Shown here piece by piece: positions 11,151 through 28,534 of a stretch of 60,919 bases of DNA. Position numbers and translations under genes: made by a program. This DNA comes from Methanomicrobiales archaeon (lineage in GTDB: Archaea; Halobacteriota; Methanomicrobia; Methanomicrobiales; Methanospirillaceae). Under the pieces are notes generated by a model, which had not been told where the DNA came from, ran no database searches, and saw nothing but the letters and a program-made list of their open reading frames with translations. The first letter of the stretch is position 1. The number at the start of each line of letters is the position of its first letter. The stretch covers positions 1-60,919 of the forward strand of contig JBAXJR010000010.1 of assembly GCA_037137755.1 (NCBI GenBank), read 5' to 3'.

Positions 11151-11215
11151 ACCAGCCCTGGTTTTGGAATCAATACCAAAAGGGTTGAAACGATTAATTT
11201 CCTGAGGAGATACAA

Positions 11216-11623: not shown

Positions 11624-11629
11624 GGAGCT

Positions 11630-12955: not shown

Positions 12956-12956
12956 A

Positions 12957-14666
12957 ATGTCTGAATATATCATTAAGAACGGTCACGTCTTTGACCCGGT
13001 ACAGGGAATCAAAGGCGACAGGAAAGACATCTTTGTTAAGGACAACAAGATTGTCGATAAGGTCGGGTCCGGTGCAAAGGTCATCGATGCATCAGGCAAG
13101 ACCGTTATGGCAGGTGCCCTTGAGATCCACGCCCATGTCGCAGGTCCCAAGGTCAACGCCGGTCGCTGGTACCGCCCAGAAGACAAGCATTTTGACTCCC
13201 ACAAGACAGCCGGCATCACCAGGATCGAAGGCGGCAAGTCAATCCCGACGGTCTTCAAGACAGGGTACGAGTACGCCCGTATGGGGTTCACGTTTGCCAT
13301 GGAAGCGGCAATGCCCCCACTCTATGCCCGCCATGTTCACGAGGAGATCCACGACACCCCAATCATCGATGAAGCAGCCCTGCCGGTGTTCGGCAACAAC
13401 TGGTTTATCCTCGAGTACCTCAAGAATCAGGAAATCGAGAACACTGCAGCATATATCGCCTGGGTTCTCAACCAGACCAAGGGATATGGGGTCAAGGTTG
13501 TAAACCCCGGCGGCACCGAAGCCTGGGCATGGGGACTGAACTGTCTTTCCATCCACGACCCGGTCCCGTACTTCGATATCACGCCGGCAGAGATTATCAC
13601 CGGCCTGATGGCGGCAAATGAGTATCTCGGTCTGCCGCACTCGATGCACCTTCACCAGAATAACCTCGGCAACCCGGGAAATTACACCACCACGCTCGAT
13701 TCCTTAAAGCTTGCAGAGGGCGTCAAAGCAAAGAATAACTTCGGCCGCGAACAGGTTCTGCACTCGACGCACCTCCAGTTCCATTCCTACAAGGGTACAA
13801 ACTGGGGAGACTTCGAGTCCGGTGCAAAGGAAGTCATGGACTACGTCAACCGACAGAAGAACCTCACCATCGACACCGGTAACGTCACCCTTGACGAGAC
13901 CACGACGATGACTGCGGATGGTCCGTTCGAGCACCACCTCAACAGTCTCAACCACTTAAAGTGGATCAACGTAGACGTCGAACTTGAAACAGCAGCAGGT
14001 GTAGTACCCTTCATTTATGACCCGGACAACGCCGTCTTCGCCAGCCAGTGGGCAGTCGGGCTTGAACTGGCACTCTATGCAAAAGACCCGATGCGCTGCT
14101 TCATCACCACCGACCACCCGAATGCAGGACCATTCACCCGGTACCCGCGTGTCTACGCGTGGCTCATGAGCGAGAAGTACCGCAACGAGCGGCTCAATTC
14201 CTTCAAAAAAGCCGACAAGGTCATCAGTGCAACCACCCTCGCAAACATCGACCGCGAGATCACGCTCTACGAGCTGGCAGCCATGACCCGTGCCGGTCCG
14301 GCCAAGTCCCTTGGACTCTCAAAGGACTACGGTGGCTTAAAGGTAGGGATGAACGCCGATATCGCCATCTACAACATCAACCCGGACAAATTCCCATCAG
14401 ACGGGGCAGCAATCGAAAAGGCATTCGGCAAAGTTGCCTACCTCTTCAAGGACGGGAAGATCTGCGTCGAAGAAGGCAAGGTCGTCGATATGGGCAAGAA
14501 GCACACCTTCTGGGTGGATGCAAAAGTCAAGGAGAACAAGCAGGTCATGCATGATGTCAGGGAAAAATTCCTCCGCTATTACAGTGTGAACGAGAACAAC
14601 TACTCGGTCCCGGAGAGCTATGCACCGCACCAGCACATTATCAGCGTGGATGCAACCCAGGCGTAG
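12957..14666 (+). CDS. fwdA: Formylmethanofuran dehydrogenase subunit A (amidohydrolase fold)
   Basis: IHAHVAG, KVVNPGG and TTDHPNAGPF. ATG at 12957 lies right after the fwdB stop. Confidence 0.96.
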   Translation: MSEYIIKNGHVFDPVQGIKGDRKDIFVKDNKIVDKVGSGAKVIDASGKTVMAGALEIHAHVAGPKVNAGRWYRPEDKHFDSHKTAGITRIEGGKSIPTVFKTGYEYARMGFTFAMEAAMPPLYARHVHEEIHDTPIIDEAALPVFGNNWFILEYLKNQEIENTAAYIAWVLNQTKGYGVKVVNPGGTEAWAWGLNCLSIHDPVPYFDITPAEIITGLMAANEYLGLPHSMHLHQNNLGNPGNYTTTLDSLKLAEGVKAKNNFGREQVLHSTHLQFHSYKGTNWGDFESGAKEVMDYVNRQKNLTIDTGNVTLDETTTMTADGPFEHHLNSLNHLKWINVDVELETAAGVVPFIYDPDNAVFASQWAVGLELALYAKDPMRCFITTDHPNAGPFTRYPRVYAWLMSEKYRNERLNSFKKADKVISATTLANIDREITLYELAAMTRAGPAKSLGLSKDYGGLKVGMNADIAIYNINPDKFPSDGAAIEKAFGKVAYLFKDGKICVEEGKVVDMGKKHTFWVDAKVKENKQVMHDVREKFLRYYSVNENNYSVPESYAPHQHIISVDATQA

Positions 14667-14676
14667 GTGAAAAGAC

Positions 14677-15477
14677 ATGAAAACGGTTACACTCACAGTA
14701 AAAAACGTACCGGAACTCTATCTGGAATGCGAGAACGTCAACCCGGACGCCTTTGCAGGTAAGACCACCGACGAGATCGCAAAGCTTGGCGGTTACCAGG
14801 GCAAGGAAATCTCAACGCTGGGCGATTACTTCACCATTGCCGGTGAAGCAGGTGCAACGGCAGCAGATACGAAAATCGTTGTCAACGGTGACTGCACGAA
14901 GATGAAGTACCTCGGCGCCAAGATGAGTGCCGGTGAAATGGTCATAAACTCGACGACCGATATGTACACCGGCAGCTGGATGACGGGCGGGAATCTGCTC
15001 GTCAAGGGCAACGTCCATTCCTTCTGTGGTCTCGCAATGAAAGGCGGGGAATTCACCATCGAAGGCGACGCAGGAAACTACCTCGGCGCTGCCTACCGTG
15101 GCGACTGGAGAGGCATGAGCGGGGGAGTCCTTCGCGTGAAAGGGAACGCCGGCTCTGATGTTGCAACATTTATGACCGGTGGCGAACTGATTGTCGAAGG
15201 GGATGTTGATATCCACATTGGCACCCACATGGAAGGTGGGAAGATCATCGTAAAGGGCAATGCCAACCGCCGTGTCGGTGGTCAGCTGGTGAAGGGCGAG
15301 ATCTATGTCTTTGGCAATATTAACGTCATGATGCCCGGTTTCAAACCCACGGGAGACGTTAACCTCGAGGTTGACGGAACGAACGCGAAGTTCACCGAGT
15401 ACATCGGCGACCTTGGCGAACGGCACCCCAAGAGGAAAGGCGAGACCGTTTACGGGAAAATATTCCTGAAAAAATAA
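14677..15477 (+). CDS. fwdC: Formylmethanofuran dehydrogenase subunit C
   Basis: GXGXG beta-helix repeats, AYRGDWRGMSGG and GDLGE. Confidence 0.95.
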   Translation: MKTVTLTVKNVPELYLECENVNPDAFAGKTTDEIAKLGGYQGKEISTLGDYFTIAGEAGATAADTKIVVNGDCTKMKYLGAKMSAGEMVINSTTDMYTGSWMTGGNLLVKGNVHSFCGLAMKGGEFTIEGDAGNYLGAAYRGDWRGMSGGVLRVKGNAGSDVATFMTGGELIVEGDVDIHIGTHMEGGKIIVKGNANRRVGGQLVKGEIYVFGNINVMMPGFKPTGDVNLEVDGTNAKFTEYIGDLGERHPKRKGETVYGKIFLKK

Positions 15478-15599: not shown

Positions 15600-15869
15600 A
15601 TGGACAAATACGAATGCATGATGTGCGGTCATACCTATGACCCGGCAAAAGGAGAATCCAGGGAGTTTCGGACTATCCTGTGTAACTCATCCGAGATGGA
15701 GAGCTACCAGTGCAAACCAGGGGAGATCACAAACGCCTATATCAAGCCCGGTACTGACTTTTCAGCTCTTCCGGCAAGCTGGAAATGTCCCACCTGCGGC
15801 TACCCGAAATCCTATTACCGTAAGCAGGCGGTTGATACGCTTTCTTCCATGCGGACTATCAGCTACTAA
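15600..15869 (+). CDS. Rubredoxin with an internal insertion
   Basis: YECMMCGHTYDPAKG...IKPGTDFSALPASWKCPTCG. GAGGAGG RBS precedes ATG 15600. Confidence 0.85.
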   Translation: MDKYECMMCGHTYDPAKGESREFRTILCNSSEMESYQCKPGEITNAYIKPGTDFSALPASWKCPTCGYPKSYYRKQAVDTLSSMRTISY

Positions 15870-16045
15870 CGCGGGATCAACTATTCGTTCACAAAATTCT
15901 TTTTTTCTCAAAAAAAAAAAAAATCTCTAACTACCCAAACCTTTGACTTCTCATTAAAACGGTGTTACGGATCACCGGAAAAATTGGATCCATGGGTAGT
16001 GGAGAACCCCACCAGCTCGAGGACCATAGCGGAACCACCCTTTTT

Positions 16046-16264: not shown

Positions 16265-16383
16265 TTTTTATTCTCCAGGGCACCACCGGGTGCCTTACGC
16301 GGCAATGAGATGTGAGTGGCAATAAGGCTTACCCCGAAACAAAGAGTTCCATGGAAAAAGTATAGCGCCCCCAACCGGGGGAT

Positions 16384-17268
16384 CTAGCCGTTGATCATCT
16401 GTATTATCGTCTTCTTGAACTCATCGTATTCCAGTTCATCCAGCTGCTCGGGTAACATCAGGCCGGTCGAGGCCTGCCGGTATATCCAGTAAATGATTTT
16501 GTCAACGACCCGGATCACATCTTCCTGCGTTTTTACGGTTATCAGATGCCGCCCAATCTTCGGGTGACGGCCACGATGGCCGCCCACGGTGATCCGGTAC
16601 TCCGGGTCAGCGCCACGAATAAGGTGGAACGGGCAGGGCATGATACAGAACCCACACTCCATGCACAGGTCTGCCGAGAGAACAATAATACCATCGTGGA
16701 CTTCGATCGCCTTCTCGCGGCAGTAATTGGTACAGGTACCGCAACCGGTGCACAATCCGGGATCACGTATCGGTTTCTGGATACCCGTGATTCCGATCTC
16801 GTTGAGCCGCTCACTTTCGCACCCGTTTGGGCAGGATGAGATGGCAATCCGGACTTTCACCGGGAGCTCTTTACCGAAAAATTTCTTATCGATCTCTTCT
16901 GCGAGTCCGACACTGTCAATGATCCCGAACTTGCAGTTACGGGTGCCGAGGCAGGCCGTAATATTCACGACTTCTTCCCGCTCGGCCCCAAGGGGAGTGC
17001 CGTTTGATTCAAGTTCACCAAGCAGTCCTTCAAGACAGGATGGATCTATATGCGGGAACTCCATGGTCTGGCGGGTGGTGAGGTGGATCTTCTCAACGCC
17101 ATACCTGGCGGCAATCTCCCCCACTTCTTTCATCTGGGCAGGCGTGATCATTCCGGCCGGCATCCGGAGGCGGACAATACAGAAATCAGGATCGCGTTCG
17201 GTGATAACCCCGCCGCGGGTGAAAAGGTCCTGGTTAACAGACCTTGGTGGACGTGCCATAACATTCAA
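16384..17268 (-). CDS. Siroheme sulfite/nitrite reductase-like protein (Dsr-LP type) with ferredoxin domain
   Basis: IHLTTRQ, CLGTRNC (CX5C), SCPNGC (CX3C), CTGCGTC and CMECGFC. Confidence 0.88.
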   Translation of the reverse strand: MNVMARPPRSVNQDLFTRGGVITERDPDFCIVRLRMPAGMITPAQMKEVGEIAARYGVEKIHLTTRQTMEFPHIDPSCLEGLLGELESNGTPLGAEREEVVNITACLGTRNCKFGIIDSVGLAEEIDKKFFGKELPVKVRIAISSCPNGCESERLNEIGITGIQKPIRDPGLCTGCGTCTNYCREKAIEVHDGIIVLSADLCMECGFCIMPCPFHLIRGADPEYRITVGGHRGRHPKIGRHLITVKTQEDVIRVVDKIIYWIYRQASTGLMLPEQLDELEYDEFKKTIIQMING

Positions 17269-17342
17269 TTATGGGATGTGTTAACTGATAGAGATTATCG
17301 CTATACTAACGATTATAGTATTCAGTTACCAATAGAGTACGT

Positions 17343-17912
17343 ATGACCAAGCAGTCCGAGTACATGGAGGCATTTTTCGGGGTTGAACTCAATGTTAAAT
17401 TCGAGGATATGATTAACGAGCTCAAGGATGCAGAGGAGAGCCTGAAAGATCTCTCAAGAGAGATCGGGAAACTGGGAACGAACCTTAGTCCCGAGGATGC
17501 AAAGGAGCACAATAAAGAGTGCCGGGCGGTCGCATACGAAAATGCCCAGCAGATCAAGGATGTCCGGACCTTCCTTGACTTCTACTTAAAATCTGACAAG
17601 ACTTCCACCCATATCATCCTCGAACGGGATGCGTACATGAAGATTTACCAGATCTTCAAGTGGGACGGCGCTGACGTACGGGACTTAAAACGCTGGTTAA
17701 AAGAACTTCGGGAACTCCTTGATAAGATCGGCCTGAACATAAAAGACCTGGTCAATTTCAAAAAACTCACATCACAGCCGGTCCCGGAGGACCTGGTAAA
17801 GTTCCCTGTCTATGCACTCGACCGCCAGGGATACTGCCTGATTGGTGCGGGATATGATGAAGTGTTACACATCAGCGAAGTCCGTGAACGTATTGCTGAA
17901 AATTCCTCGTGA
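17343..17912 (+). CDS. Hypothetical protein (coiled-coil N-terminus)
   Basis: 189-aa ORF with protein-like composition, divergent from the Dsr-LP gene. Confidence 0.75.
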   Translation: MTKQSEYMEAFFGVELNVKFEDMINELKDAEESLKDLSREIGKLGTNLSPEDAKEHNKECRAVAYENAQQIKDVRTFLDFYLKSDKTSTHIILERDAYMKIYQIFKWDGADVRDLKRWLKELRELLDKIGLNIKDLVNFKKLTSQPVPEDLVKFPVYALDRQGYCLIGAGYDEVLHISEVRERIAENSS

Positions 17913-18076
17913 AAAATCGTAGTTTAATTGAAATATCTCCAACCCCCATACCATTTTTCTCGTATTTTCGATAAAAATTCATCCTGGTCACTTTGATTAT
18001 AAGAGATACGACTCTCCTGAAAGGACTCGGTATTGCATGAAGGACGTGGGGAAATAATCAGATAAATGGTGAAACT

Positions 18077-18304
18077 ATGGTAACAAAGAACCTCGATATT
18101 ACCGGAAAAGTCTGCCCGTACTGCCTGCTCGTTGTGCAGAAACAGGTAAAAGTAATGAAACAGCCGGACGAACTGGTCATCAAATGTGACCATCCCCCTA
18201 CTGCAACCACCTCAATTCCCCAGTTTGCAAGAGATAATAACCTGAATTGTGAGGTAAGTAAGATCTCATCGGGTCTCTGGGAAATCCGGCTCAAAAAAAA
18301 TTAA
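18077..18304 (+). CDS. TusA/SirA-family sulfur carrier
   Basis: LDITGKVCPYC...LVIKCDHP...IPQF...WEIRLKK. Confidence 0.88.
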   Translation: MVTKNLDITGKVCPYCLLVVQKQVKVMKQPDELVIKCDHPPTATTSIPQFARDNNLNCEVSKISSGLWEIRLKKN

Positions 18305-18370
18305 CCAGATCCATTTAACTCAATCGATAAATAATTCAGTACAGGGAACGCTCTTAGTAAGAGCCACATC

Positions 18371-19615
18371 ATGACCTCACATTTTTTTCTTCTCGGCGAA
18401 AGGATCTCCCAGGAGCGGCTTACCTGGATCGAGGAAGTCCTGAAATTTTACTTTTTGAAATTGTATCCTGAAAACCTGCTGCACCATACAACACCAAAGG
18501 AAGTAGCCTTCACGTTCCTGATCACGGGTGATGCATTATACAGCCTGAACGAAGAAGACACACTCCCGGTCTGGGAAATCATTCTTTCCCTGCCTTCCGT
18601 AAAAATTGTCTGTGACCGTCAGGAACTTGATCTTCGGGGCATTTCAATCGAGCGCCTGAAAATGAAAAATCCCGAACAGCTGATCGATCATAACAGCATG
18701 AGCCTGAACGGAAAAACATCATTCTGGAAAGATGTCGTTAAAATTGCCCGGCAGACTGATGAGCCATTACCGAGTACGATAGGCTACCTGCAACTTGAAT
18801 CGCCCTATATGCACACATCAGGACTGAATGCTACCCAGTGCCTGGCTGCAGCAATTGAAGTCCGGGCATCAATAGAACTCTATACCTATCTTGACGGGGT
18901 TCATCTCAGCCATACCAATCAGAACCCGACTGAGTGCCAGAACATTGGTGCAACGCTTGAAGAAATGAATGATCGTGCCGAAAAACGTGGGTTGAAGTGC
19001 CAGATGCTCGCCTGTTCCCGTTGTGCCGCAGCCAGGGGATACAGTACCTGGGATGATGGTAAAGGGGTCGTTATATCTACCTGCACGATAAAGCCATTCA
19101 GGATCCGGAACCTGAAGGCTATTATCGACCGGTTTGAGTGCAACCATCTTATTCTTGGGCAAAATGCTGCATCAATCACGCAGAAAAAAGAAGGACCTAT
19201 ATCCCAGTATAACAACGTTGAGAAGAACGCTGCACCCCCGGTAACGATTCTGATTACGAAGACACCCTATGGAACCGAACATGCATTTGGTGCACTCTCA
19301 TTTGCCATAGCCTGTGCATACCAGGGAATCCGTACCCAGGTTGTTTTTATTGAAGATGGTGTCTATTCATTGACCGGAAACCACCGCCTGAATGAGGAAA
19401 CGCAATACTTCAACCTTCAGGAAGTGATTGAAGCGGTGTCAGAAAGTGAAAATCTCCATCTCTATGCCTACCTGCCTTCACTGCACCGCCGCAGGATCAC
19501 GAAAAATAAACAGATGACCTTCATTCTCGATATTGGTAAAACAGAACTTGCACAACTGTTATTCCATCCATCAAAGAGTTCCCAGGCGGGTCACCAGAGA
19601 GTACTATTCTTTTAG
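18371..19615 (+). CDS. Multi-domain DsrE/DsrF/DsrH(TusBCD)-like sulfur relay fusion
   Basis: Three DsrE-like units: ITGDALY...ELDLRGI; SPY...YLDGV...ACSRCAAARG; ITKTPYGTE...FIEDGVY...SLHRRRI. Confidence 0.8.
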   Translation: MTSHFFLLGERISQERLTWIEEVLKFYFLKLYPENLLHHTTPKEVAFTFLITGDALYSLNEEDTLPVWEIILSLPSVKIVCDRQELDLRGISIERLKMKNPEQLIDHNSMSLNGKTSFWKDVVKIARQTDEPLPSTIGYLQLESPYMHTSGLNATQCLAAAIEVRASIELYTYLDGVHLSHTNQNPTECQNIGATLEEMNDRAEKRGLKCQMLACSRCAAARGYSTWDDGKGVVISTCTIKPFRIRNLKAIIDRFECNHLILGQNAASITQKKEGPISQYNNVEKNAAPPVTILITKTPYGTEHAFGALSFAIACAYQGIRTQVVFIEDGVYSLTGNHRLNEETQYFNLQEVIEAVSESENLHLYAYLPSLHRRRITKNKQMTFILDIGKTELAQLLFHPSKSSQAGHQRVLFF

Positions 19616-19645
19616 AGGCCGGGTAAGGCTGGGAGAAGAAGGACA

Positions 19646-20482
19646 ATGGGTGGAATTATTCTGAAGAATGCAGGGCCTTTGTGCCAGCTCCAAGCCATTG
19701 ATCCCGGAGTTGTTGCCGGTGTTGACCTTGGATCAACCCGGATCAAGGTCGTAATCTATAACGGGACTGAATATATCGCAAGGATGCGGGACGCGACATG
19801 TGATCCGGAGAAAACCGCCCTGGCACTCCTCAGGGAGACCTGCACGGAGGCCGGGCTTGTTTCAATGCCAACGGTCATCGCAACTACGGGTTATGGGCGC
19901 CGATGCCTGAAGACCGCTACTCTCACCTTCACAGAAATTGCAACCCATGCAAAAGGTGCATTCAACCTGGTGCCAGGTTGCAGGTTCGTGGTGGACATCG
20001 GAGGGCAGGATGCCAAAGGTATCAGTCTTTCAGCCGATGGCAGTGTGGAGGATTTTGTAATGAACGACAAGTGTGCCGCCGGGACAGGAAGGTTCCTTTC
20101 GACCATGGGACTGGCACTCGGAATCCCCGTAGATAGTCTCGGTGCCAGCGCTACTGGTGGAGAACCACACCGGATCAACGCGATGTGTACTGTCTTTGCA
20201 GAATCTGAAGTGATTAGCCTGATCCACCAGGGAATACCCCGGAATGCAATCATCGCCGGTCTTCATGCCTCGGTTGCCCGCCGTACGGCATCGATGGTCG
20301 CATCTCTCCATCCGGTACCACCTATCGCCTTCACCGGAGGAGTATCGCAGAACGCGGATATTGTGCGGAGACTTTCAGGGGAACTTGGCCATCCCGTCAT
20401 CGTCCCCCATGACGCTATCTATGCCGGGGCATTTGGAGCGGCGCTTCTTGCATGGGAGCACCAGGAGAATATCCATAAATAG
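19646..20482 (+). CDS. ATP-dependent electron-transfer activase (HgdC/BadF/DCCP-R family)
   Basis: GVDLGST, TTGYGR, TEIATH, DIGGQDAK, MNDKCAAGTGRFL and CTVFAESEVIS. Confidence 0.93.
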   Translation: MGGIILKNAGPLCQLQAIDPGVVAGVDLGSTRIKVVIYNGTEYIARMRDATCDPEKTALALLRETCTEAGLVSMPTVIATTGYGRRCLKTATLTFTEIATHAKGAFNLVPGCRFVVDIGGQDAKGISLSADGSVEDFVMNDKCAAGTGRFLSTMGLALGIPVDSLGASATGGEPHRINAMCTVFAESEVISLIHQGIPRNAIIAGLHASVARRTASMVASLHPVPPIAFTGGVSQNADIVRRLSGELGHPVIVPHDAIYAGAFGAALLAWEHQENIHK

Positions 20483-20538
20483 AAAAAATAGCGTACTTTT
20501 CAATTCAGCCGGCCAGGATTGACAGAGGACAGGTCGTT

Positions 20539-20844
20539 CTAATTAAACCGGGTCGCCATCAGTGCATCCAGGTATTCGGACGAATAAGACTCTTTTTTCG
20601 GATCGTACCATACTTCGATCTCAATTTCCCCGGGTATGCAATGAATTTCAAGAAGACCATATTTATGAATGATATGTACCGCACCGGATGGCGTATCACG
20701 CGTATAAAGGTCTTCGTTTCCTAAAAATGCCTGGGCATCAGCACCTGATAGTGGACGGGAAAGCCGGTATAAGCGACGTTCCCAGCCTGGATACGGCGAA
20801 ACGGAGTTCTGGAAAACTGATGACATTATCATTATAGGTTTCAC
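20539..20844 (-). CDS. Hypothetical protein
   Basis: 101-aa ORF with a GTG start and GGAG RBS, downstream of the DCCP-like gene. Confidence 0.55.
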   Translation of the reverse strand: MKPIMIMSSVFQNSVSPYPGWERRLYRLSRPLSGADAQAFLGNEDLYTRDTPSGAVHIIHKYGLLEIHCIPGEIEIEVWYDPKKESYSSEYLDALMATRFN

Positions 20845-20892
20845 GACTCCAGCCGATAATACGATCGCTACTTTTCCCTGGCGAAAGAAGGA

Positions 20893-22044
20893 TTAGTGTT
20901 TTTTAGTCATCTCAAGGAATGCCTCAACCCGGGTCTTGATCTGGGCGTTATCTCCCTGAGAATAATCGGTCTCAACCTGGAGGAGTGGCACGTTCCCATG
21001 TTGGGAAAGATACTCCTTGAGCAGCCGGGACTCGACGTTGTAGGTATGACAGCCAACCCAGGTGATATCCACGACACCGTCTGCACGGTATTCCTTTGCG
21101 AGTTTTGCCAGCAGTTCAAGCCGGCCGGTGTTGGGGCTCATGCAGGAGCAGGGTGTGAGGAGGTACTTATCGGCAATTGCATCAAGGGGAGAACCGCTGG
21201 TTGCAACGTCATGCAGGTACTGTTTCATGCCGGCACAGTTTTCAAGGTATACCACATCCGCACCGGATTCCTCGATGATCTTAATAACTTTCTCTGAACC
21301 GATACCTGTGGGGACACCGGTGACGATGATCCGCTGGGCGGTCTTTCCTGAGGCCCCTTCACCCCTGGACTTCATCATTTTGAGCTCGGCAATCAGTTCT
21401 TTAACATGCTGGTTGAATTCGACCCGGTCGAAGACAAAGTTCCGTGCCCACATCACCTTAAGCAGGTCCTGGCCTGAAAGGGGCACCGGACTTGCGGTGT
21501 TCATGGATGCCAGTTCCCGCATAAGAGCCCGCTGGTCATTCAGGTCTCTGATTGCGGCCTTCATCATCTCATCGCTGATGGTAACACCGAGACGTTGTTC
21601 AATCTCCTTTTTGCAACGTGCTACTTCCGATCGCCAGTACTGTTTCTGGGACTCGCCCTTTGCACTCTGGGGGACTTCTAGGACGACCAGTGGTTTGAAC
21701 TTCTCCATGAGTTCAAACATCTTCTTCTTGCCATCGCAGGTGGTCTCACCGATGATAAATTCGGAGTTGTTGAAAAACGCACACTTTTCCGTGATAGCAA
21801 ACCCGTAGGAGGACTTGATCAACGGGCAGAAGTTACGGGGCAGGTATTTCTCCCCGTCTGCAATCGGTTCTTCCTTGGTGGCACAAAGAGTAACCGGCAC
21901 CGCACCGGCGGCTACGATAAGTTCCTGTGGTGCAAACACACAATAGAACCCAACGAACTTTTTTCCCTGGTCCCGGACATTCTTGATCGCTGCTGATGCA
22001 TTCGGTATTACCGAATCGAAATAGGTCATGTTTTCTGCTCTCAT
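20893..22044 (-). CDS. Double-cubane-cluster-type reductase (2-hydroxyacyl-CoA dehydratase/YjiM family)
   Basis: GFYCVFAPQELI, LC, LPRNFCPLIKSSYG, GETTCDGKKK, ENC, CSCMSPN, CHTYNVE and ETDYS. ATG 22044 has a GAGGA RBS. Confidence 0.88.
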   Translation of the reverse strand: MRAENMTYFDSVIPNASAAIKNVRDQGKKFVGFYCVFAPQELIVAAGAVPVTLCATKEEPIADGEKYLPRNFCPLIKSSYGFAITEKCAFFNNSEFIIGETTCDGKKKMFELMEKFKPLVVLEVPQSAKGESQKQYWRSEVARCKKEIEQRLGVTISDEMMKAAIRDLNDQRALMRELASMNTASPVPLSGQDLLKVMWARNFVFDRVEFNQHVKELIAELKMMKSRGEGASGKTAQRIIVTGVPTGIGSEKVIKIIEESGADVVYLENCAGMKQYLHDVATSGSPLDAIADKYLLTPCSCMSPNTGRLELLAKLAKEYRADGVVDITWVGCHTYNVESRLLKEYLSQHGNVPLLQVETDYSQGDNAQIKTRVEAFLEMTKKH

Positions 22045-22081
22045 GTTTTTTCCTCGTATAAAATCGTTGTTTGAAAAATCC

Positions 22082-22555
22082 TTACTGGTTCTCCGGGTAT
22101 GTACCTGTTTCCCGGAGAATGATCTTTGCGGCCTCTTCTGCGACTTCCCCGGTGAATCCAACACATTGAGAAACGTGTTCTGGGGATTTCAGTACCATGC
22201 CGTGGGTAAGAGTACGACAGCAGAGACAGCCGTGCTGGCGGGTGAAGAATGCGTGCAATTCCCGGGAAAGGGCAAGGCACCGGTCTATGCTGGGGTCACC
22301 AGGTACTTTACGCCCGAAAACCATCCCAAGCGCCATAACTCCCCCTGTAACGGCACCGCATGCACAACCTGCACTACCGATACCTATGGGAAATCCTGAT
22401 GCAAGACGGACGATTTCGTCTGGATAACCAAGCCCGAATTCGTCATTGATGGTCTTGACGATCGCTTCAGAACAGTAGAACTGTCCTGACTGGTAATATG
22501 ACTCGGCTATTTTCCGGACCCGGGCTGGATCCGGCTTTTCTGGCAACTTCTGCAT
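22082..22555 (-). CDS. C_GCAxxG_C_C-family putative redox protein
   Basis: FYCSEA...GIGSAGCACGAVTGG...CCRTL...QCV. Confidence 0.9.
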   Translation of the reverse strand: MQKLPEKPDPARVRKIAESYYQSGQFYCSEAIVKTINDEFGLGYPDEIVRLASGFPIGIGSAGCACGAVTGGVMALGMVFGRKVPGDPSIDRCLALSRELHAFFTRQHGCLCCRTLTHGMVLKSPEHVSQCVGFTGEVAEEAAKIILRETGTYPENQ

Positions 22556-22584
22556 GCAGGTACTCCTTATCCCGGATTTCTTCT

Positions 22585-23109
22585 CTACCGGACGAGCCGT
22601 ACGTCAGCCTTGAGCGGGATGGCATGCTTTATAGTAAACATACCCATACACCGTCCAAGGGCGTACTCCTTAAGGTCCTGTACCTGTGCATCGGTAACAT
22701 CGCCTGATACTTCCATAACTACACGGTATTCATTAATGAGAGGATTGTCCCCAAGATCGAACTGTTCGGTATAATCAAGGTCCGCCTCTACTTTGGTCTT
22801 CACGGACGTGAGCCGGATGTTCCGCAGCGATGCCTCGGTGACAAATGTGCTCGAGTAGCACGCGGCAAACCAGAAAAGACCGAATGCCATCGGCCCGGGG
22901 CAGATCCCGGGACCAGCAAAATTCGGGTGACTTGCCTCCATGCTATATGTTCTGTCTTTTACCTTGACGGTGGACCGGAACTGGGGTCCACCTTCCACAA
23001 AGAGCCAGTCCCCCTCAATCTTCGCGGTGAACCTTGCTTCATTTGGATCTTTTTTAATGACTTCTTTGTAGTCCCTGACCTGTTTGACATCGATGTTATT
23101 CAGACTCAT
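22585..23109 (-). CDS. OsmC-family protein
   Basis: P.PM...AACYSST and a second Cys in RCMG give OsmC/Ohr-like spacing. Confidence 0.75.
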   Translation of the reverse strand: MSLNNIDVKQVRDYKEVIKKDPNEARFTAKIEGDWLFVEGGPQFRSTVKVKDRTYSMEASHPNFAGPGICPGPMAFGLFWFAACYSSTFVTEASLRNIRLTSVKTKVEADLDYTEQFDLGDNPLINEYRVVMEVSGDVTDAQVQDLKEYALGRCMGMFTIKHAIPLKADVRLVR

Positions 23110-23297
23110 AAAGTTAACACTCCTTTAATCTTGCTAGTGAATGTAAATATATTTTATTAAATTAGTGCAGATAAGAGTAATAGTGTGATTAACATAGGGT
23201 TAAATGTGTTTACAAAAATAAAACAAAAATGATGTAAGGATCATCTCCGCACGTCCTATACTAGTACCTGAAAAATTCAATGATACAGAAGGTTACC

Positions 23298-24509
23298 ATG
23301 CCAAAAATCTCCCTCGGCCTGCAGGAAGCCCTACGTCTGACCCTGAAAGAAATAAAGCAGCTCCCCACTGAGAATGTTTCCCTGGTTGACAGCGTTGACC
23401 GTATAGCTGCTGCAGATCTCTATGCCCTCGTAGATTCCCCCACTATGGATTCTTCCCGGAAAGACGGGTATGCGGTTATAGCCCATGAAATTGCCGGTGC
23501 CACGGTTGAAAATCCCGTTCGGTTGCGGCTTCTGGGTTCTATGGCCGCGGGGGGAGAGAAAGATATACCGGTCACTCCTGGAACAACGGTGAGGGTATTG
23601 ACAGGAGCCCGCATCCCAACCGGCGCTGATGCGGTGCTGGCTGAAGAATACGTAAAATCGTGGGACTCGGAGATGCTGGCACAGAGCTTTGCCGAACCCA
23701 AGAATATTCTGAGGCGTGGTAGCGATGTGGCCCTGGGGAAATGCATCCTCCGGACAGGCCAACAAATATCGCCTATGATGGCCGGTCTCCTGGCTGCTGC
23801 AGGGCATAGCATTGTCCCGGTCTTTAGGAACCCAGTTGTGGGAATTATCGGTACCGGCGATGAAATCATCGAACCGGGTAAACCCCTTGCTGACGGAATG
23901 CTCTACGCAAGCAATATCACGACTCTGGCAGGATGGTGCACCCGGTATAAAATAAAGACCTGCATGGCCATTGTCAGGGATGATCAGGCAGCCCTCCTAC
24001 ATGCCATAAAGGACCTGGCCAATAAAACGGATGCCCTGATAACCAGCGGAGGGGCCTGGACCGGAGATCACGACCTGGTGGCTCGTGTCCTCGAAGAGCT
24101 CGGATGGCAGCAGGTGTTTCACCGCATCCGGATGGGACCCGGTAAGGCGGTCGGTTTTGGTTTAATGGTTAAAAAACCCGTATTCATCCTGGCTGGCGGA
24201 CCTTCTTCCAACCTGATGGGTTTCCTGCAGATCACGTTGCCAGGCCTCCGTGCCCTTTCCGGCCACCCTGACCCGGGCCTGCCCAGGATTACAGCAAGGC
24301 TCGCTTCCGGAATCGGGGAAGGTGAACCAGACTGGACGGATTTTTTCTTCGGTAACCTGGAATGGAATGATGGGTTACCGGATTTTTATCCTATGTCGAA
24401 ACGAAACAGCTTATCCTCACTGGCCGAAGCTACCGCAGTGGCTTGCATACCTGAAGGACAGGATTCTCTTCCGATGGGATCGATCATTTCTGTTCAATGG
24501 TTGAAATAG
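23298..24509 (+). CDS. moeA: Molybdopterin molybdotransferase MoeA
   Basis: SRKDGYA, LTGARIPTGADAV, GTGDEI, ITSGG and MGPGK. The start may be 23280. Confidence 0.93.
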   Translation: MPKISLGLQEALRLTLKEIKQLPTENVSLVDSVDRIAAADLYALVDSPTMDSSRKDGYAVIAHEIAGATVENPVRLRLLGSMAAGGEKDIPVTPGTTVRVLTGARIPTGADAVLAEEYVKSWDSEMLAQSFAEPKNILRRGSDVALGKCILRTGQQISPMMAGLLAAAGHSIVPVFRNPVVGIIGTGDEIIEPGKPLADGMLYASNITTLAGWCTRYKIKTCMAIVRDDQAALLHAIKDLANKTDALITSGGAWTGDHDLVARVLEELGWQQVFHRIRMGPGKAVGFGLMVKKPVFILAGGPSSNLMGFLQITLPGLRALSGHPDPGLPRITARLASGIGEGEPDWTDFFFGNLEWNDGLPDFYPMSKRNSLSSLAEATAVACIPEGQDSLPMGSIISVQWLK

Positions 24510-25003
24510 GGCATTCGTGGCTGATTTCAATGTAACCCGTAAAGAGTAAAAAAATTCAGGGATCCAACCTGGTGAATCAACCCTGATTGGCAGGTTTTTG
24601 CTAAATTGTAGAGTGTTGGAAAAAGAAGATTTTAGAAAATCTGTTGTTCGCTTAATTGGATTAACTAAGATGTAACTACAATGGTTTTTATTTACACACA
24701 ACTAATACTGTTGATTAAGATTTCCTGAATTGAAAGCGGAGCCAAATTTACGATGAAAGGGATGAGGGATATCGAATCCGTTAATAAGAAAAAAAGTATC
24801 ACCCGTTTTCAAGCGGCCCTTTTTCAGATTTATACCCCGGTCCGGTTATCAATACCCCGGATCCCGGGCATACGGACGATTTTTTTTATAATATACATTA
24901 AAGGACGACTGGTAACCTCAACCATGTCACCAGGAGAAAATCAGCGGGAGTTATCAGATAGATTCTCTGATTTGAAATCCGGGAGTTTTAGAGGTGTTGC
25001 CAC

Positions 25004-26917
25004 ATGGTAAAACGATATCTAAACCTGATCTCTCTTGAACGGGCGATCGATCTTACCCTTACATCATTTGAGAACCCTGACAAGAAAATTTCGATCCCCG
25101 TAATCAATTCTGCCGGGCGGGTTTCAGCTGCTCCTGTATATGCGAAATATTCCGTTCCTGAAGTGAATCTTTCCGCAATGGATGGATTTGCTGTCAGAAG
25201 CAGGGATACCGTGGGCGCAAGCGACCAGACACCGGTAACTATCGAGGATTTCACGCAGGTAAATACCGGTAATATCGTCCCTCCCGAGTTTGATGCGGTC
25301 ATTATGATCGAAGACACCTGGAATAAAGGAGATGGTTTTCAGATCAGGAAATCCGCATCACTCTGGCAGCATATCCGCCCTGCTGGTGAAGATGTCCGGG
25401 AAGGACAACTCGTGCTTCCCGAAGGACACCGGATCCGTCCGTTCGACATCGGTGCCCTGGCCACGTATGGTATTGTCCGTCTCGATGTCAGGGAGGTGAA
25501 TGTCGGGCTGGTACCAACAGGCAGTGAACTGGTTAATCTTGGCATCCGACCCGCACCCGGACAGGTTGTTGAAAGTAATACCATTATGGCAGAGGTTTTT
25601 CTCAGTGAAATGGGCGCGAACTGTACCCGGTATCCCATAGCCCGTGATAATCCAAAGATCATCGAAGAAAGCCTTTGTAAGGCGGTCGATGAAAACGATC
25701 TCGTGCTTATTTCTGCCGGATCATCTGCAGGTACCCGTGACTATACTGCTGAAGTCATCGAATCTGTGGGTGAACTGCTTTTCCATGGTGTTGCAATGAA
25801 ACCTGGAAAACCTGCCATGCTCGGGAAAATTGATGATAAACCCGTGATTGGGTTACCAGGGTATCCACTTGCAGCACAAACGGCACTCAGGGAATTTGCC
25901 GGACCCTTACTTGAATCATGGGGGTTACCCGCACCCCTCTATCACACATTCCGGGTGCAATTATCAGGGAGCCTGGTATCAGACCTCGGGTTTGACGAGT
26001 TCATCCCGGTTTCTGTCGGACATGTTGGGAATAAATTCTTCGCAATTCCCCATTCCCGTGGCTCAGGGATCCAGATGGCAACGGTCAAAGCCAATGGATT
26101 CGTCCATATACCTGCATTCACGGAAGGGTGTGATTCGGAAACCGAGATGGACGCAGTATTGACGACAGATCCGGGTAATATTGAACGGACGATCCTTCTT
26201 TCAGGGGCATACGACCCTGCACTTGATGAACTGGCGCATCTTGTCAGAGATAATGGTATCTTCATGCAGGTCAGGAGTGCAGGTAATATAGGGGCCGTAC
26301 TTTCCCTTCGGCACAATTCCTGCCATGCAGCGCCATTAAGTCTGCCTGATTTTTCGCTATTGCCTAATTGTAGGGAAATTATGCAATTACTACCATTGTC
26401 AGACCTGAGGTTTGTCCATATCGCAACAACCTCTCTCGGTATTGCATCATTGGAGGGGTACAGTTTCGAGGACCTTATTACTACGAGGTTCATTAACAGG
26501 CGGAAAGGGGCCTCGGCCCGGATGATATTTGACACAATTATCCAAGCCAGGGGAATTGATCCGGCACAAATTGATGGGTACGGGCATGAAGTAGAGACGC
26601 ATAAGGCAGTTGCTGAAGCTATTCGAAACGGGTTTGCTGATGCCGGAATATGCAGTTCCGGGGTTGCGGAGGAAAACGGACTTTTATTTGTTCCTCTCGT
26701 GGGCGAACAACTGGAACTGGCAATACGAACTGATCTCATGAAAGAACCAAATATATCGGCACTGGTCTCGACAATTCGGTCAAAATCCTTTAAATTATCC
26801 CTTGCAAATAAAGGAGGATATAATTTGTCACAAACCGGATTAATCCGGTGTCTTTCTGAAGACTTCTCTGTAAAAGAACACCACTCTCCTGAAAGTGCCA
26901 CTGAATCCTTATTTTGA
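25004..26917 (+). CDS. moeA: MoeA fused to a C-terminal periplasmic-binding-protein-like domain
   Basis: SAMDGFAV, NTGN, SAGSSAGTRDY, KPGKP and GLPGYP, then the PBP-like tail FINRRKGASAR...IDGY...THKAVA...ADAG. Confidence 0.92.
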   Translation: MVKRYLNLISLERAIDLTLTSFENPDKKISIPVINSAGRVSAAPVYAKYSVPEVNLSAMDGFAVRSRDTVGASDQTPVTIEDFTQVNTGNIVPPEFDAVIMIEDTWNKGDGFQIRKSASLWQHIRPAGEDVREGQLVLPEGHRIRPFDIGALATYGIVRLDVREVNVGLVPTGSELVNLGIRPAPGQVVESNTIMAEVFLSEMGANCTRYPIARDNPKIIEESLCKAVDENDLVLISAGSSAGTRDYTAEVIESVGELLFHGVAMKPGKPAMLGKIDDKPVIGLPGYPLAAQTALREFAGPLLESWGLPAPLYHTFRVQLSGSLVSDLGFDEFIPVSVGHVGNKFFAIPHSRGSGIQMATVKANGFVHIPAFTEGCDSETEMDAVLTTDPGNIERTILLSGAYDPALDELAHLVRDNGIFMQVRSAGNIGAVLSLRHNSCHAAPLSLPDFSLLPNCREIMQLLPLSDLRFVHIATTSLGIASLEGYSFEDLITTRFINRRKGASARMIFDTIIQARGIDPAQIDGYGHEVETHKAVAEAIRNGFADAGICSSGVAEENGLLFVPLVGEQLELAIRTDLMKEPNISALVSTIRSKSFKLSLANKGGYNLSQTGLIRCLSEDFSVKEHHSPESATESLF

Positions 26918-28522: not shown

Positions 28523-28534
28523 CCTTACCACCTC

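Follow-up and report, generated by a model that had tools for sequence, protein, structure and literature searches.

A Methanoregulaceae gene island that holds sulfur-trafficking genes and an ATP-driven double-cubane reductase

A gene island specific to the Methanoregulaceae, wedged between the fwd operon of a tungsten/molybdenum (W/Mo) enzyme and molybdopterin-insertion genes, joins two units, one for sulfur trafficking and the other an ATP-driven reductase. The first, which resembles the yedE-tusA-dsrEFH (YTD) cluster, consists of TusA, a chain with three DsrE folds, the divergent siroheme protein Dsr-LP and a conserved 189-residue protein (hyp189); its YedE importer has been deleted here. 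The second consists of a double-cubane cluster protein (DCCP), its activase, the thiol-redox protein C_GCAxxG_C_C and an OsmC-like protein. Tentatively, and at slightly less than even odds, we read the locus as the sulfur counterpart of the bacterial selenium-linked neighbourhood YedE-YedF-SelD-EF2568-type lyase-DCCP, probably feeding W/Mo cofactors; unlike that neighbourhood, the host here has no SelD. The side-by-side genes hint that DCCP, a reductase of unknown substrate, acts on carrier-bound sulfur.

Gene content and setting

The window (the whole 60,919-nucleotide stretch analysed) comes from a Methanoregulaceae MAG that is 90.6% complete. All nine ORFs between 16384 and 23109 lie where the first-pass annotation had placed them, and Pfam and NCBIfam agree with its gene labels (Table 1). 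Its description of the flanks, FdhD and MoeA included, was also borne out: Pfam identifies fdhAB, fmdE, fdhD, modABC, mobB and fer-fwdDBAC upstream, and MoeA_N, MoCF_biosynth, MoeA_C and PBP_like on the side of the two moeA genes. The subunit names fwdD, B, A and C are those that we take from established knowledge of Fwd/Fmd. Because the nine-gene arrangement recurs in relatives' genomes and on 14 metagenome contigs, we regard it as more than chance.

Table 1. Features of the island and its immediate flanks
Feature	Coordinates	Strand	Evidence
Ferredoxin (10887-11150) and fwdD, fwdB, fwdA, fwdC (formylmethanofuran dehydrogenase operon)	10887..15477	+	Pfam Fer4, Molydop_binding, Molybdopterin, Amidohydro_3, GXGXG
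Rubredoxin-like gene	15601..15869	+	Pfam Rubredoxin 2.1e-15
Dsr-LP	16384..17268	-	NIR_SIR 74 bits, NIR_SIR_ferr 63 bits, Fer4
hyp189, 189-aa conserved protein with invariant Cys165	17343..17912	+
Deletion junction	18012..18014	.	1,226 bp with split yedE/yeeE pair missing versus closest relative, L017
TusA-like sulfur carrier	18077..18304	+	Pfam TusA 47.7 bits versus cut-off 28.6
DsrE fusion, 414 aa, single chain, triple DsrE-fold	18371..19615	+	Pfam DsrE on middle and C-terminal thirds
BcrAD/BadFG activase, ATP-dependent, DCCP-R counterpart	19646..20482	+	TIGR00241 213 bits
hyp101, 101-aa, doubtful small ORF	20539..20844	-
DCCP	20893..22044	-	NF040772 490 bits versus cut-off 350
C_GCAxxG_C_C thiol-redox protein	22082..22555	-	PF09719 97.5 bits; TIGR01909 101 bits versus cut-off 47.4
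OsmC-like protein	22585..23109	-	PF02566 48.9 bits
moeA (23280-24509); small ORF (24753-25010); moeA with PBP_like domain (25004-26917)	23280..26917	+

A trimmed sulfur-trafficking unit

The sulfur half has the gene content of the published YTD cluster, in a trimmed and fused form. The operon in relatives runs hyp189, split yedE, tusA, fusion. In blastn, window positions 15403-18012 match 4980-7582 of L017 and 18014-19640 match 8809-10433, and L017 carries two Sulf_transp halves at 7778-8835. The sulfur unit behaves as a single module, as indicated by the conserved operon and the YTD gene content, and also by two sets of fusion paralogues: the most divergent (32-35% identity) have lost all other neighbours and keep an adjoining split yedE in 5/5 loci examined, and a second set still has TusA, Dsr-LP, MoeA and fwd close by.

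The sole TusA of the genome carries the motif GKVCPYC; of 14 aligned relatives, 11 conserve Cys13 and 12 conserve Cys16. The fusion holds the genome's only DsrE domains, with an unassigned N-terminal third followed by a DsrE-like middle domain (Cys215 and Cys218) and a DsrF-like C-terminal domain. Its predicted structure (AF2 pLDDT 84.7, pTM 0.88) gave TusD, DsrF, DsrE and YchN as best Foldseek matches, and single domains matched 2hy5_B (E 3.8e-4) and 2hy5_A (E 0.16); in the latter match, Cys215 falls opposite the DsrE cysteine. Two results speak against our reading: the fusion family lacks an invariant cysteine (of 25 sequences, 20 retain Cys215, 19 retain Cys218 and two retain neither), and a search of the 90.6%-complete genome turned up no DsrC/TusE acceptor.

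Dsr-LP is a small siroheme sulfite-reductase-like protein of the group III type with two ferredoxin-type clusters (CX5C...CX3C plus two CX2CX2CX3C motifs), and among solved structures it comes closest to the C-terminal half of Fsr (7np8_A, 126 bits). The first-pass annotation had grouped it with the sulfur run; the gene is present, but on the minus strand, divergent from hyp189-TusA-fusion-activase on the plus strand. Wherever relatives carry a near-full-length hyp189 (14 loci), it lies between Dsr-LP and yedE/tusA. It has no Pfam or NCBIfam match, falls into 177 protein clusters (the organism names among the 120 listed being Methanoregula, Methanoregulaceae or Methanomicrobiales throughout) and averages 83% column identity in a 13-sequence alignment.

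The double-cubane protein and its activase

DCCP is the genome's only HGD-D family gene. Its longest frame (GTG 22164) overlaps C_GCAxxG_C_C; the start is likely to be ATG 22044, because the family model begins at frame residue 49 and orthologues have 383 residues. Against the Carboxydothermus hydrogenoformans DCCP (7yyl_C/6eno_A, 271 bits), cysteines 35, 54, 73, 88, 103, 270, 299, 301 and 332 align with cysteines, whereas the tenth, Cys144, does not; eight are invariant across 14 DCCPs.

The activase matches MbdQ (163 bits), HadI (162 bits) and DCCP-R (7yyl_E, 145 bits) in the PDB, and is the sole free-standing one in the genome, since the copy on C7 is methanogenesis marker 15. It forms a pair with DCCP, which it adjoins in 20/20 other loci. 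As previously annotated, it follows the fusion by 31 bp on the same strand (start minus previous end), and the 30-nt spacer contains no T-run. No contig in the RNA libraries spans the junction, a point against our reading.

Linkage of the two units among relatives

Within 6 kb of the 40 fusion copies from 30 relatives, fwd is the commonest neighbour (28/40); Dsr-LP is near 20 and a MoeA2 homologue near 10, but DCCP and activase are each near just nine and are missing beside 31. A side remark of the first-pass annotation, that sulfur might go to the Mo, FdhD and MoeA machinery, fits this strongest conserved linkage, although the relatives are kin and block duplication could keep fwd adjacent without shared function. 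Its connection of the relay to DCCP held in that it recurs and faltered on these nine copies, DCCP and activase being dispensable to the sulfur genes. DCCP and activase are also missing from 7/16 window-type loci (one of the seven contigs ends 2.5 kb beyond the fusion). Contrary to our two-unit scheme, OsmC and C_GCAxxG_C_C remain with the fusion where DCCP has gone, and the OsmC-like gene still adjoins it in the DCCP-less loci L020, L022, L023, L045, L049 and L051.

These patterns would suit two unrelated modules in a crowded W/Mo island, brought together by island dynamics: TusA, fusion and Dsr-LP (with YedE) would assimilate or detoxify thiosulfate and sulfite, and DCCP and activase would reduce another small molecule. 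We consider this unlikely, though a serious contender. DCCP and activase come and go together while the sulfur genes stay, and the window shows a deletion and mosaic identity at 18013. Moreover, the sulfur-DCCP pairing occurs at 0/20 DCCP loci from the sample of other Halobacteriota genomes: at E <= 1e-6, none of the 117 neighbour ORFs scanned matched TusA, DsrE, OsmC, C_GCAxxG_C_C, NIR_SIR or Sulf_transp. Against unrelated modules, two distant DCCP lineages, which part at the midpoint root of a tree with 112 rows, occupy the same slot, and the activase stands 31 bp behind the fusion. Three metagenome contigs (L093, L095 and L099) repeat the complete cluster, OsmC-CGCAxxG-DCCP><activase-fusion-TusA-YedE-hyp189<>Dsr-LP.

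The idea that the relay builds or repairs the sulfide-bridged [8Fe-9S] cluster of DCCP, also put forward in the first-pass annotation, has physical adjacency in its favour and nothing more. It fits poorly with the patchy presence of DCCP, with relays that lack it beside 31/40 fusion copies and with DCCPs without TusA/DsrE neighbours in 20/20 Halobacteriota-sample loci; Dsr-LP, yedE and fwd are steadier partners of the relay. We judge it very improbable.

Sulfur and selenium genes beside DCCP elsewhere

Metagenomes yielded 24 unrelated, non-island DCCP loci with flanks of at least 2.5 kb, for which we scored neighbours within 3.5 kb. Eight carry sulfur/selenium-trafficking families, including YedF, YedE, Se_S_carrier, EF2568-type desulfurase, rhodanese, C_GCAxxG_C_C and sulfite-reductase-like NIR_SIR, and they spread over at least five separate DCCP clades, which again argues against unrelated modules. 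Examples are EF2568-type desulfurase / DCCP-activase-Se_S_carrier-C_GCAxxG_C_C-YedF-SelD in a bacterial operon (L134), DCCP-activase-YedF-desulfurase (L151) and YedE-YedF / DCCP (L145). TusA/YedF is adjacent in 3/24 loci, far above the expectation from one such gene per genome, as the family is rare (one copy in this genome). The other 16 loci have neighbours such as URO-D and B12 proteins, ABC transporters and methyltransferases, which favours unrelated modules over our reading. Given two DCCP lineages in the island, the 31-bp spacing and the 8/24 loci, the link between the sulfur unit and DCCP is not chance.

The first-pass annotation proposed a candidate undescribed pathway, but the pathway is not wholly undescribed, since the YTD cluster and a correlation of DCCP with selenium have both been published; its interpretation overall is partly supported. 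A preprint gives co-occurrence of DCCP with SelD in bacteria as 955/970 and places methanogens among the SelD-less exceptions. A selenium function, as proposed for bacterial YedE/YedF/DCCP, would agree with the bacterial figure and with relatives whose split YedE scores best to TIGR04112 seleno_YedE and whose nearby desulfurase scores best to the EF2568/SclA type. Yet no SelD above cut-off was found in this genome or in 5/5 near-complete island-bearing relatives, for which reason we favour sulfur, and the locus does have Dsr-LP and DsrE, partners specific to sulfur; selenium is the least probable reading that we weighed.

Proposed function

We propose that TusA Cys13 would bind non-sulfide sulfur (thiosulfate, polysulfide or sulfite) as a persulfide or thiosulfonate and hand it to Cys215 in the DsrE-like domain of the fusion, while Dsr-LP may reduce released sulfite. 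The activase, spending ATP, would charge DCCP, whose very low-potential electrons could free or process the carrier-bound sulfur, and the product would most likely provide sulfur for the W/Mo-pterin cofactors in Fwd and Fdh. This W/Mo destination is supported by fwd beside 28/40 fusion copies and by the gene orders of L070, L071 and L021 given below. While the gene identities, the neighbourhood statistics and the pairing of DCCP with activase are shown here, the substrates, the direction in which sulfur moves and its destination are inferred. Reduction of persulfide or S(0) has, by redox values, no obvious need for ATP-boosted electrons, which counts against this scheme.

Alternatively, the whole island, DCCP included, might mature W/Mo-pterin enzymes, with the relay providing dithiolene or terminal sulfido sulfur and DCCP acting on the metal, cofactor or thiometallates and not on free sulfur compounds. 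The genes are surrounded by fwd, moeA, mod/MOT1, TOBE and fdh/fmdE/fdhD, and four Methanomicrobiales DCCP lineages lie by Mo/W genes: the window type, the island paralogue, L021 (DCCP-activase-fmdE-fdhAB-moeA-fusion-fwd) and L071 (MOT1-activase-DCCP, with ThiF close by). MOT1 and a MOSC domain also occur in L151, 5-8 kb upstream of its DCCP cluster, and in L127 the DCCPs have ThiF and a molybdopterin oxidoreductase nearby. However, kinship inflates these counts, the most divergent fusion group retains yedE with no Mo/W neighbour, and DCCP loci outside the Methanoregulaceae (18 of the 20 fetched) have no Mo/W genes. We know of no biochemical precedent, and regard this alternative as improbable.

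Minor open reading frames

The doubtful ORF hyp101 has no family match, and tblastn found a homologue in L019 only (64%). The rubredoxin-like ORF was listed from GTG 15561, and ATG 15601 was read off the sequence. Its product is 71% identical to the L043 copy, RNA-library contigs cover 15585-15839, and in L070 the gene sits between fwdC and the DCCP orthologue (fwdDBAC-rubredoxin-DCCP><activase).

Organization of the island

Nine ORFs occupy 16384-23109, and family searches agree with the labels that a first-pass annotation had given to all of them (table of features). That annotation had also placed the activase immediately after the fusion (a single-chain protein with three DsrE folds) on the same strand, as we find, and had described two converging halves with Dsr-LP, a small siroheme sulfite-reductase-like protein, within the first. 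The convergence stands, but Dsr-LP lies on the opposite strand from this run and diverges from it. Its description of the flanks was borne out by a family scan: upstream are fdhAB, fmdE, fdhD, modABC, mobB, a ferredoxin gene and fwdDBAC, then a rubredoxin-like gene, and downstream are two moeA genes. Further Mo/W uptake genes occur elsewhere in the window. One ORF of the island, hyp101, has zero family matches and one tblastn homologue and is a doubtful, poorly supported ORF.

Features of the island and the rest of the window, and selected genes of related loci
Feature	Locus	Coordinates	Strand	Length (aa)	Remarks
Dsr-LP	Window		-	294	NIR_SIR/ferredoxin protein
hyp189	Window		+	189	First of the plus-strand run hyp189, TusA, fusion, activase
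TusA	Window		+	75	
DsrE-family fusion	Window		+	414	
BcrAD/BadFG activase	Window		+	278	Start 31 nt past fusion end
OsmC-like	Window		-		Converges on plus-strand run
C_GCAxxG_C_C	Window		-		Converges on plus-strand run
DCCP	Window	Most likely start ATG 22044, versus overlapping GTG 22164	-	383 (from ATG 22044)	Converges on plus-strand run
hyp101	Window		-	101	Converges on plus-strand run
Interval covered by RNA-library contigs	Window	16034-16259			Between rubredoxin-like gene and Dsr-LP
Four co-directional overlapping ORFs next to a Cdc6/Orc1-type gene	Window	27230-29168 (-) and 29245-30486 (+)			No Pfam match for the four ORFs
Large ORF	Window	34831-37947	-	1038	No Pfam match
Mo/W uptake genes	Window	38949-40091 and 43869-45643			MFS_MOT1 molybdate transporter; ABC permease and ATPase with TOBE domain
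Small TusA-like ORF	L043	10999-11247		82	After fusion
Small TusA-like ORF	L017	10422-10670		82	After fusion
DGC-domain gene (PF08859)	L030	1590-1958			
DGC-domain gene (PF08859)	L033	11696-12064			Followed by ArsM-like methyltransferase
DGC-domain gene (PF08859)	L086	9449-9997			
HcyBio gene	L081	5879-7165			Homocysteine biosynthesis, sulfur incorporation

A predicted double-cubane reductase

The double-cubane cluster protein (DCCP) scores 490.3 bits against NF040772 (cut-off 350; 490.5 bits in the genome search) and matches the solved Carboxydothermus hydrogenoformans DCCP (7yyl_C) over its full length with 271 bits. The published seven-cysteine spacing, written as a regular expression, has no exact match in the protein, as two of the six gaps differ, by 1 and 4 residues. 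A residue-by-residue alignment to 7yyl_C, used in its place, pairs Cys 35, 54, 73, 88, 103, 270, 299, 301 and 332 with cysteines of that structure; eight cysteines are invariant in a 14-member DCCP alignment. We predict from this similarity an ATP-dependent reductase with an [8Fe-9S] cluster. A 2-hydroxyacyl-CoA dehydratase or benzoyl-CoA reductase subunit was considered and rejected: those models reach at most 127 bits against cut-offs of at least 420, and no second HGD-D gene was found, DCCP being the sole member of that family in the 2.64-Mb, 90.6%-complete genome.

The activase reaches 213 bits against TIGR00241 (cut-off 125.4), and its NDKCAAGTGRF and CTVFAE stretches, whose cysteines are presumably the ligands of the bridging [4Fe-4S] cluster, align with MbdQ. 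The genome has two activase-like genes; the second is methanogenesis marker 15 (745 bits), which leaves that of the window as the only candidate partner of DCCP. The two gene ends lie 410 nt apart on opposite strands, and an activase adjoins DCCP in all 20 other loci retrieved from a sample of Halobacteriota genomes. The pair resembles DCCP and its activase DCCP-R of C. hydrogenoformans (PDB 6eno, 7yyl; PMC9351452) in the full-length match with aligned cluster cysteines and in the BcrAD/BadFG-family partner ATPase. Whereas the DCCP-R gene sits beside DCCP on the same strand, the window's partner is convergent, at the end of the sulfur-carrier operon, and its match to DCCP-R (145 bits) is no closer than those to MbdQ and HadI (about 163 bits).

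Sulfur carriers and Dsr-LP

The active-site cysteine of TusA sits in a CPxP motif. The TusA of the island matches PF01206 (47.7 bits; gathering cut-off 28.6) and reads CPYC, with Cys13 and Pro14 kept and Cys16 in place of the second proline. It falls under the curated cut-offs of the named equivalogs NF001423 (E. coli TusA; 32.1 versus 78), NF041048 (TsuB/YeeD; 38 versus 147.5) and TIGR03527 (YedF; 19.6 versus 110), scores that indicate a TusA-fold protein outside these three groups. Among 14 relatives, 11 keep Cys13 and 12 keep Cys16. TusA paralogues that accompany a second set of fusion paralogues (L048, L050 and L052) carry Ser13 at the canonical active-site position and retain Cys16; either this lineage works through Cys16, or sulfur is not carried by these copies.

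The AF2 model of the fusion (pLDDT 84.7, pTM 0.88) comprises three alpha/beta units. Pfam DsrE matches cover residues 143-237 and 291-394, and Foldseek returned TusD, DsrE, DsrF, DsrH and YchN at a TM-to-target of 0.64-0.75, the best being TusD, DsrF, DsrE and YchN. The middle domain aligns weakly with Allochromatium vinosum DsrE (2hy5_A; E 0.16), which puts Cys215 opposite the DsrE cysteine; for the C-terminal domain the match is DsrF (E 3.8e-4), and the N-terminal domain has zero sequence matches. Of 25 family members, 20 have Cys215, 19 have Cys218 and two have neither, and no cysteine is invariant. TusA and DsrE domains are single-copy in the genome, which is 90.6% complete and has no match to the DsrC/TusE acceptor (PF04358) at E <= 0.01. 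A complex prediction for the fusion and TusA gave scores of 0.01 and 0.00, where the mark is 0.32, and was counted neither for nor against an interaction.

The closest match of Dsr-LP is the sulfite-reductase half of Fsr (7np8_A, residues 342-591; 126 bits), with which its motifs CLGTRNC and CPNGC, followed by CTGCGTCTNYC and CMECGFCIMPC, are aligned. Basic residues of the protein align with Fsr where the four sulfite-binding Arg/Lys (sub-groups a-d) would be expected, and may correspond to them. By its motifs, the protein fits the group III Dsr-LP pattern of a siroheme-[4Fe-4S] motif with peripheral and additional [4Fe-4S] motifs (Susanti and Mukhopadhyay, PMC3448663). With group III and the C-terminal domain of Fsr it shares the siroheme-[4Fe-4S] motif and two extra ferredoxin-type motifs, but Fsr has an F420H2-oxidizing half and the window's Dsr-LP stands alone.

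Of the accessory proteins, C_GCAxxG_C_C matches PF09719 (97.5 bits versus 27) and TIGR01909 (101 versus 47.4). The OsmC-like protein matches PF02566 (48.9 versus 27.5), and its translation holds Cys70, Cys84 and Cys154, candidates for the two peroxidatic and resolving cysteines of OsmC. hyp189 has no usable match in the protein atlas and only coiled-coil noise in Pfam (AF2 pTM 0.50; best Foldseek match in the PDB, E 0.44).

Relation to the YTD cluster

The operon of relatives runs from hyp189 through two half-size Sulf_transp (YedE/YeeE) genes, tusA, the fusion, a small TusA-like ORF and a 117-aa ORF to the activase; upstream of it are a cysteine desulfurase of EF2568/SclA type and a DVU_1556-like methyltransferase. 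The published YTD cluster consists of yedE, tusA, one gene resembling dsrE, and two more genes now read as dsrEFH type II. Gene content and order are thus alike (a YedE-type transporter, TusA and three DsrE-fold units), as are the DsrE-type cysteine and the pairing with a siroheme sulfite-reductase-type enzyme. What YTD encodes as three separate DsrE-fold genes is one 414-aa chain in the island; YedE is split in two in relatives and deleted in the window. Unlike YTD, the island has a small Dsr-LP in place of DsrC and DsrAB, neither of which was found, and its host is a methanogen in which the cluster is embedded in W/Mo genes. On this comparison, the sulfur half is a known YTD-type cluster in a new, fused form. 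The parts of the island are drawn from known families, and published relatives exist for each half; the island does not amount to a new kind of system.

The full-length fusion is restricted to Methanomicrobiales among 401 sampled genomes of the phylum, the other lineages having single-domain matches, or tandem matches with stops, only. As far as the literature was searched, the single-chain DsrEFH-like protein of Methanomicrobiales is new. The main text of the YTD paper uses none of the words ‘fused’, ‘fusion’ and ‘methanogen’, and ‘Methanoregula’ is absent from the matches listed for DsrE/TusA. Another archaeal system that encodes a DsrE-family protein and TusA together, DsrE3A/TusA of Metallosphaera cuprina, carries thiosulfonate on cysteine (PMC4175335). 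It belongs to a sulfur oxidizer, lies beside an Hdr-like complex and consists of separate proteins with neither DCCP nor Dsr-LP.

The yedE pair is missing from the window: compared with L017, the locus of the closest relative, a clean deletion has removed 1,226 bp. The split halves are present in L017 and in L043, L093, L095 and L099, and the genome's one Sulf_transp pair is on another contig (C5), away from TusA and DsrE. Between 15403 and 19640, identity to L017 is 89.5% to the left of a junction at 18013 and 79% to its right; this drop points to a boundary of recombination or replacement where the yedE genes were lost. The 82-aa and 117-aa ORFs of relatives are likewise absent from the window. 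By eye, the product of the 82-aa ORF resembles a second TusA-fold protein, with a cysteine near its N terminus; it has no Pfam match. DGC-domain genes lie beside divergent yedE-fusion modules, and one also, at another place in the genome of a relative, beside a third DCCP-activase pair.

Conserved neighbours of the fusion

The window proteins were placed by tblastn on 40 loci of relatives, and genes lying up to 6 kb from 40 fusion copies in 30 genomes were then counted; the genomes are kin, so that the counts overstate independence. The most frequent neighbour is the fwd operon (28 of 40 copies), followed by Dsr-LP (20), hyp189 (15), TusA and OsmC (14 each), C_GCAxxG_C_C and MoeA2 (10 each), and DCCP and the activase (9 each). 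Block duplication could keep such adjacency without shared function. Set-2 fusion paralogues (52-56% identical) keep TusA, Dsr-LP, MoeA and a second fwd operon, and lack DCCP. In the most divergent set (32-35%) all of these neighbours are absent, but in each of the five loci examined the fusion directly abuts split yedE. Together, the paralogue neighbourhoods define a stable core of yedE/TusA/fusion and Dsr-LP, tied to Fwd and Mo/W genes.

The first-pass annotation had remarked on a possible link to the molybdopterin machinery, and gene neighbourhoods support it. In addition to the counts for the fusion, a family member that lacks the fusion (L070) has fer-fwdDBAC-rubredoxin-DCCP orthologue with a convergent activase; L071 has MOT1-activase-DCCP with ThiF close by; and L021, from another family, has DCCP-activase-fmdE-fdhAB-moeA-fusion-fwdDBAC. 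A TOBE gene follows the fusion operon in L017. Of two bacterial loci, L151 carries genes for MOT1 and a MOSC domain 5-8 kb upstream, and in L127 ThiF and a molybdopterin oxidoreductase occur close to the DCCPs. These associations are what one might expect if the whole island, DCCP included, worked on the cofactor or a metal; we regard that as improbable.

Instead we tentatively favour a single route, to which we give slightly less than even credence. The gene identities, the DCCP-activase pairing and the neighbourhood counts behind it are observed; its substrates, the direction of transfer and the destination we infer. Sulfur that is not yet sulfide would ride on Cys13 of TusA and Cys215 of the fusion, and Dsr-LP would reduce sulfite. 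DCCP, charged by its activase, would supply ATP-boosted electrons with which the carrier-bound sulfur may be processed reductively, and the product would serve the sulfur needs of W/Mo cofactors. To our knowledge, the source of sulfur for these cofactors in methanogens is unsettled, and a relay devoted to this supply would be relevant to how enzymes work at the first step of CO2-dependent methanogenesis.

The steady pairing of the fusion with Dsr-LP and Fwd operons is new within the literature searched, and provides a testable context for abundant methanogen proteins that have no assigned function. The search did not find TusA, DsrE and ‘formylmethanofuran dehydrogenase’ together in a relevant sense. 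In the available text of PMC3448663, the terms ‘neighbor’ and ‘molybd’ occur 0 times, and a pairing of Dsr-LP with TusA, the fusion or fwd is not mentioned.

Linkage of DCCP to the sulfur genes

The sulfur genes and the DCCP had been read as one system in the first-pass annotation, and co-occurrence of the two sustains this only in part. Nine of the 16 window-type loci have DCCP and an activase of some kind and seven do not, although one of those seven contigs ends 2.5 kb past the fusion. In the DCCP-less loci, OsmC and usually also C_GCAxxG_C_C still adjoin the fusion. This patchy presence counts against a link. Moreover, none of the 117 neighbour ORFs scanned at 20 DCCP loci of the Halobacteriota sample matches TusA, DsrE, OsmC, C_GCAxxG_C_C, NIR_SIR or Sulf_transp at E <= 1e-6. 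Such loci are compatible with two unrelated modules that share one island, an explanation that we consider unlikely but take seriously.

Other observations favour the link. The activase ends the carrier operon after a 30-nt spacer that has no T-run, and the entire cluster recurs in the metagenome contigs L093, L095 and L099 as OsmC-CGCAxxG-DCCP><activase-fusion-TusA-YedE-hyp189<>Dsr-LP (><, convergent; <>, divergent). Some islands carry the window-type DCCP with a convergent activase, others a co-directional DCCP-activase pair placed between OsmC and C_GCAxxG_C_C or the fusion, and some have both. In a FastTree phylogeny of 112 sequences, the midpoint root separates the two DCCP types. That inheritance alone put two distant DCCP lineages into one slot is hard to credit.

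Outside methanogens and the island, 24 metagenome DCCP loci have at least 2.5 kb on both sides; their 207 neighbour ORFs were scanned and named by NCBIfam. In 8 of the 24, a sulfur- or selenium-trafficking family lies within 3.5 kb of DCCP. L134 has an EF2568-type desulfurase and DCCP-activase-Se_S_carrier-C_GCAxxG_C_C-YedF-SelD, L145 has YedF-YedE and DCCP-activase, L151 has DCCP-activase-YedF-EF2568-type desulfurase, and L158 has rhodanese-desulfurase-DCCP-activase-Se_S_carrier; the neighbour is Se_S_carrier in L152, a rhodanese in L121, a desulfurase in L118 and NIR_SIR in L166. Two loci with shorter flanks are extra to the 24: in L146 the activase is followed by a YedF-like gene, and in L141 a YedE-TusA pair lies 6.6 kb off. 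The loci with such genes span at least five separate DCCP clades. The remaining 16 have corrinoid methyltransferase genes, ABC transporters, methyltransferases and unrelated genes. The first-pass annotation had also offered assembly of the [8Fe-9S] cluster as a role for the relay; the relay and DCCP do occur side by side, and, with the fusion operon present in DCCP-less loci, we think this role highly unlikely.

The bacterial DCCP loci L107, L109, L110 and L120 contain URO-D (MtaA-like) and B12-binding genes, the content of mlp clusters (PMC10418091), and L110 is among the nearest non-island kin of the window's DCCP. At a Methanosarcinales-type locus (L081), an HcyBio gene lies two genes from DCCP-activase.

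Sulfur versus selenium

The question of the DCCP substrate reportedly dates from the first DCCP paper, in 2018. As of 2022, the natural substrate of double-cubane reductases was generally unknown, according to a preprint by Haft and Gwadz (10.1101/2022.07.06.499078), in which 955 of 970 high-scoring DCCPs came from SelD-containing assemblies, with methanogens among the exceptions, and DCCP was tied to an SAO locus with a DsrE-like SaoD. DCCP has also been linked provisionally to selenium metabolism, in work that describes mlp clusters (PMC10418091). Like the island, the bacterial selenium-linked neighbourhoods have DCCP and an activase beside chalcogen-handling genes, and both have YedE, a TusA-fold carrier, C_GCAxxG_C_C and an EF2568-type desulfurase (in relatives of the window). 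The island adds a sulfur-specific DsrE fusion and Dsr-LP. The shared genes might speak for selenium handling here too, but SelD stays under the cut-off in the genome (best 68.6 bits versus 125) and in all five near-complete island-bearing relatives, and we judge that explanation barely credible. With no SelD over the cut-off in these six genomes, the island looks like a sulfur counterpart of the bacterial selenium neighbourhood.

This SelD-free, sulfur-type DCCP neighbourhood is new as far as we searched, as is the finding that DCCP-activase repeatedly adjoins genes for YedF, YedE, Se_S_carrier and EF2568-type desulfurases. In the literature searched, ‘double-cubane’ with ‘TusA’ returned the Haft preprint only, and because the words YedF, YedE, desulfurase, carrier and rhodanese are absent from the text of that preprint, supplementary tables aside, the DCCP-carrier adjacency is not described there. 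The locus and its relatives narrow the candidate substrates of DCCP to carrier-bound sulfur or selenium, and the island offers a selenium-free system in which the question becomes directly testable.

More broadly, DCCP and its activase might be an ATP-driven reductase of a carrier-held chalcogen, that is, sulfur on TusA/DsrE, or selenium on YedF/Se_S_carrier in bacteria. In Mo/W-pterin enzymes, formylmethanofuran and formate dehydrogenase among them, the chalcogenide product would be used for the dithiolene or for the terminal sulfido or selenido ligand. We put this forward as a speculation that is probably wrong as a whole; if true, it would explain the DCCP-SelD correlation, the SelD-less methanogen exceptions and the four DCCP lineages by Mo/W genes in Methanomicrobiales.

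RNA-library contigs and other features of the window

Short RNA contigs from four metatranscriptome runs of one freshwater study are at least 95%, and mostly at least 99%, identical to the window. They fall on the rubredoxin gene, the interval 16034-16259, Dsr-LP, hyp189 and the fusion, and, in one run each, on the activase, DCCP and OsmC. None bridges a gene junction, and DNA carry-over is possible. In two runs, contig depth at 16034-16259 is 10-14, above that of the neighbouring genes. Short unsupported ORFs are all that this interval contains, and Rfam has 0 matches there or anywhere else in the window; the interval may represent a UTR or a small RNA. Elsewhere in the window, overlapping ORFs accompany a Cdc6/Orc1-type gene, and G+C is raised in the stretch that holds the 1038-aa ORF (0.60 versus about 0.50).
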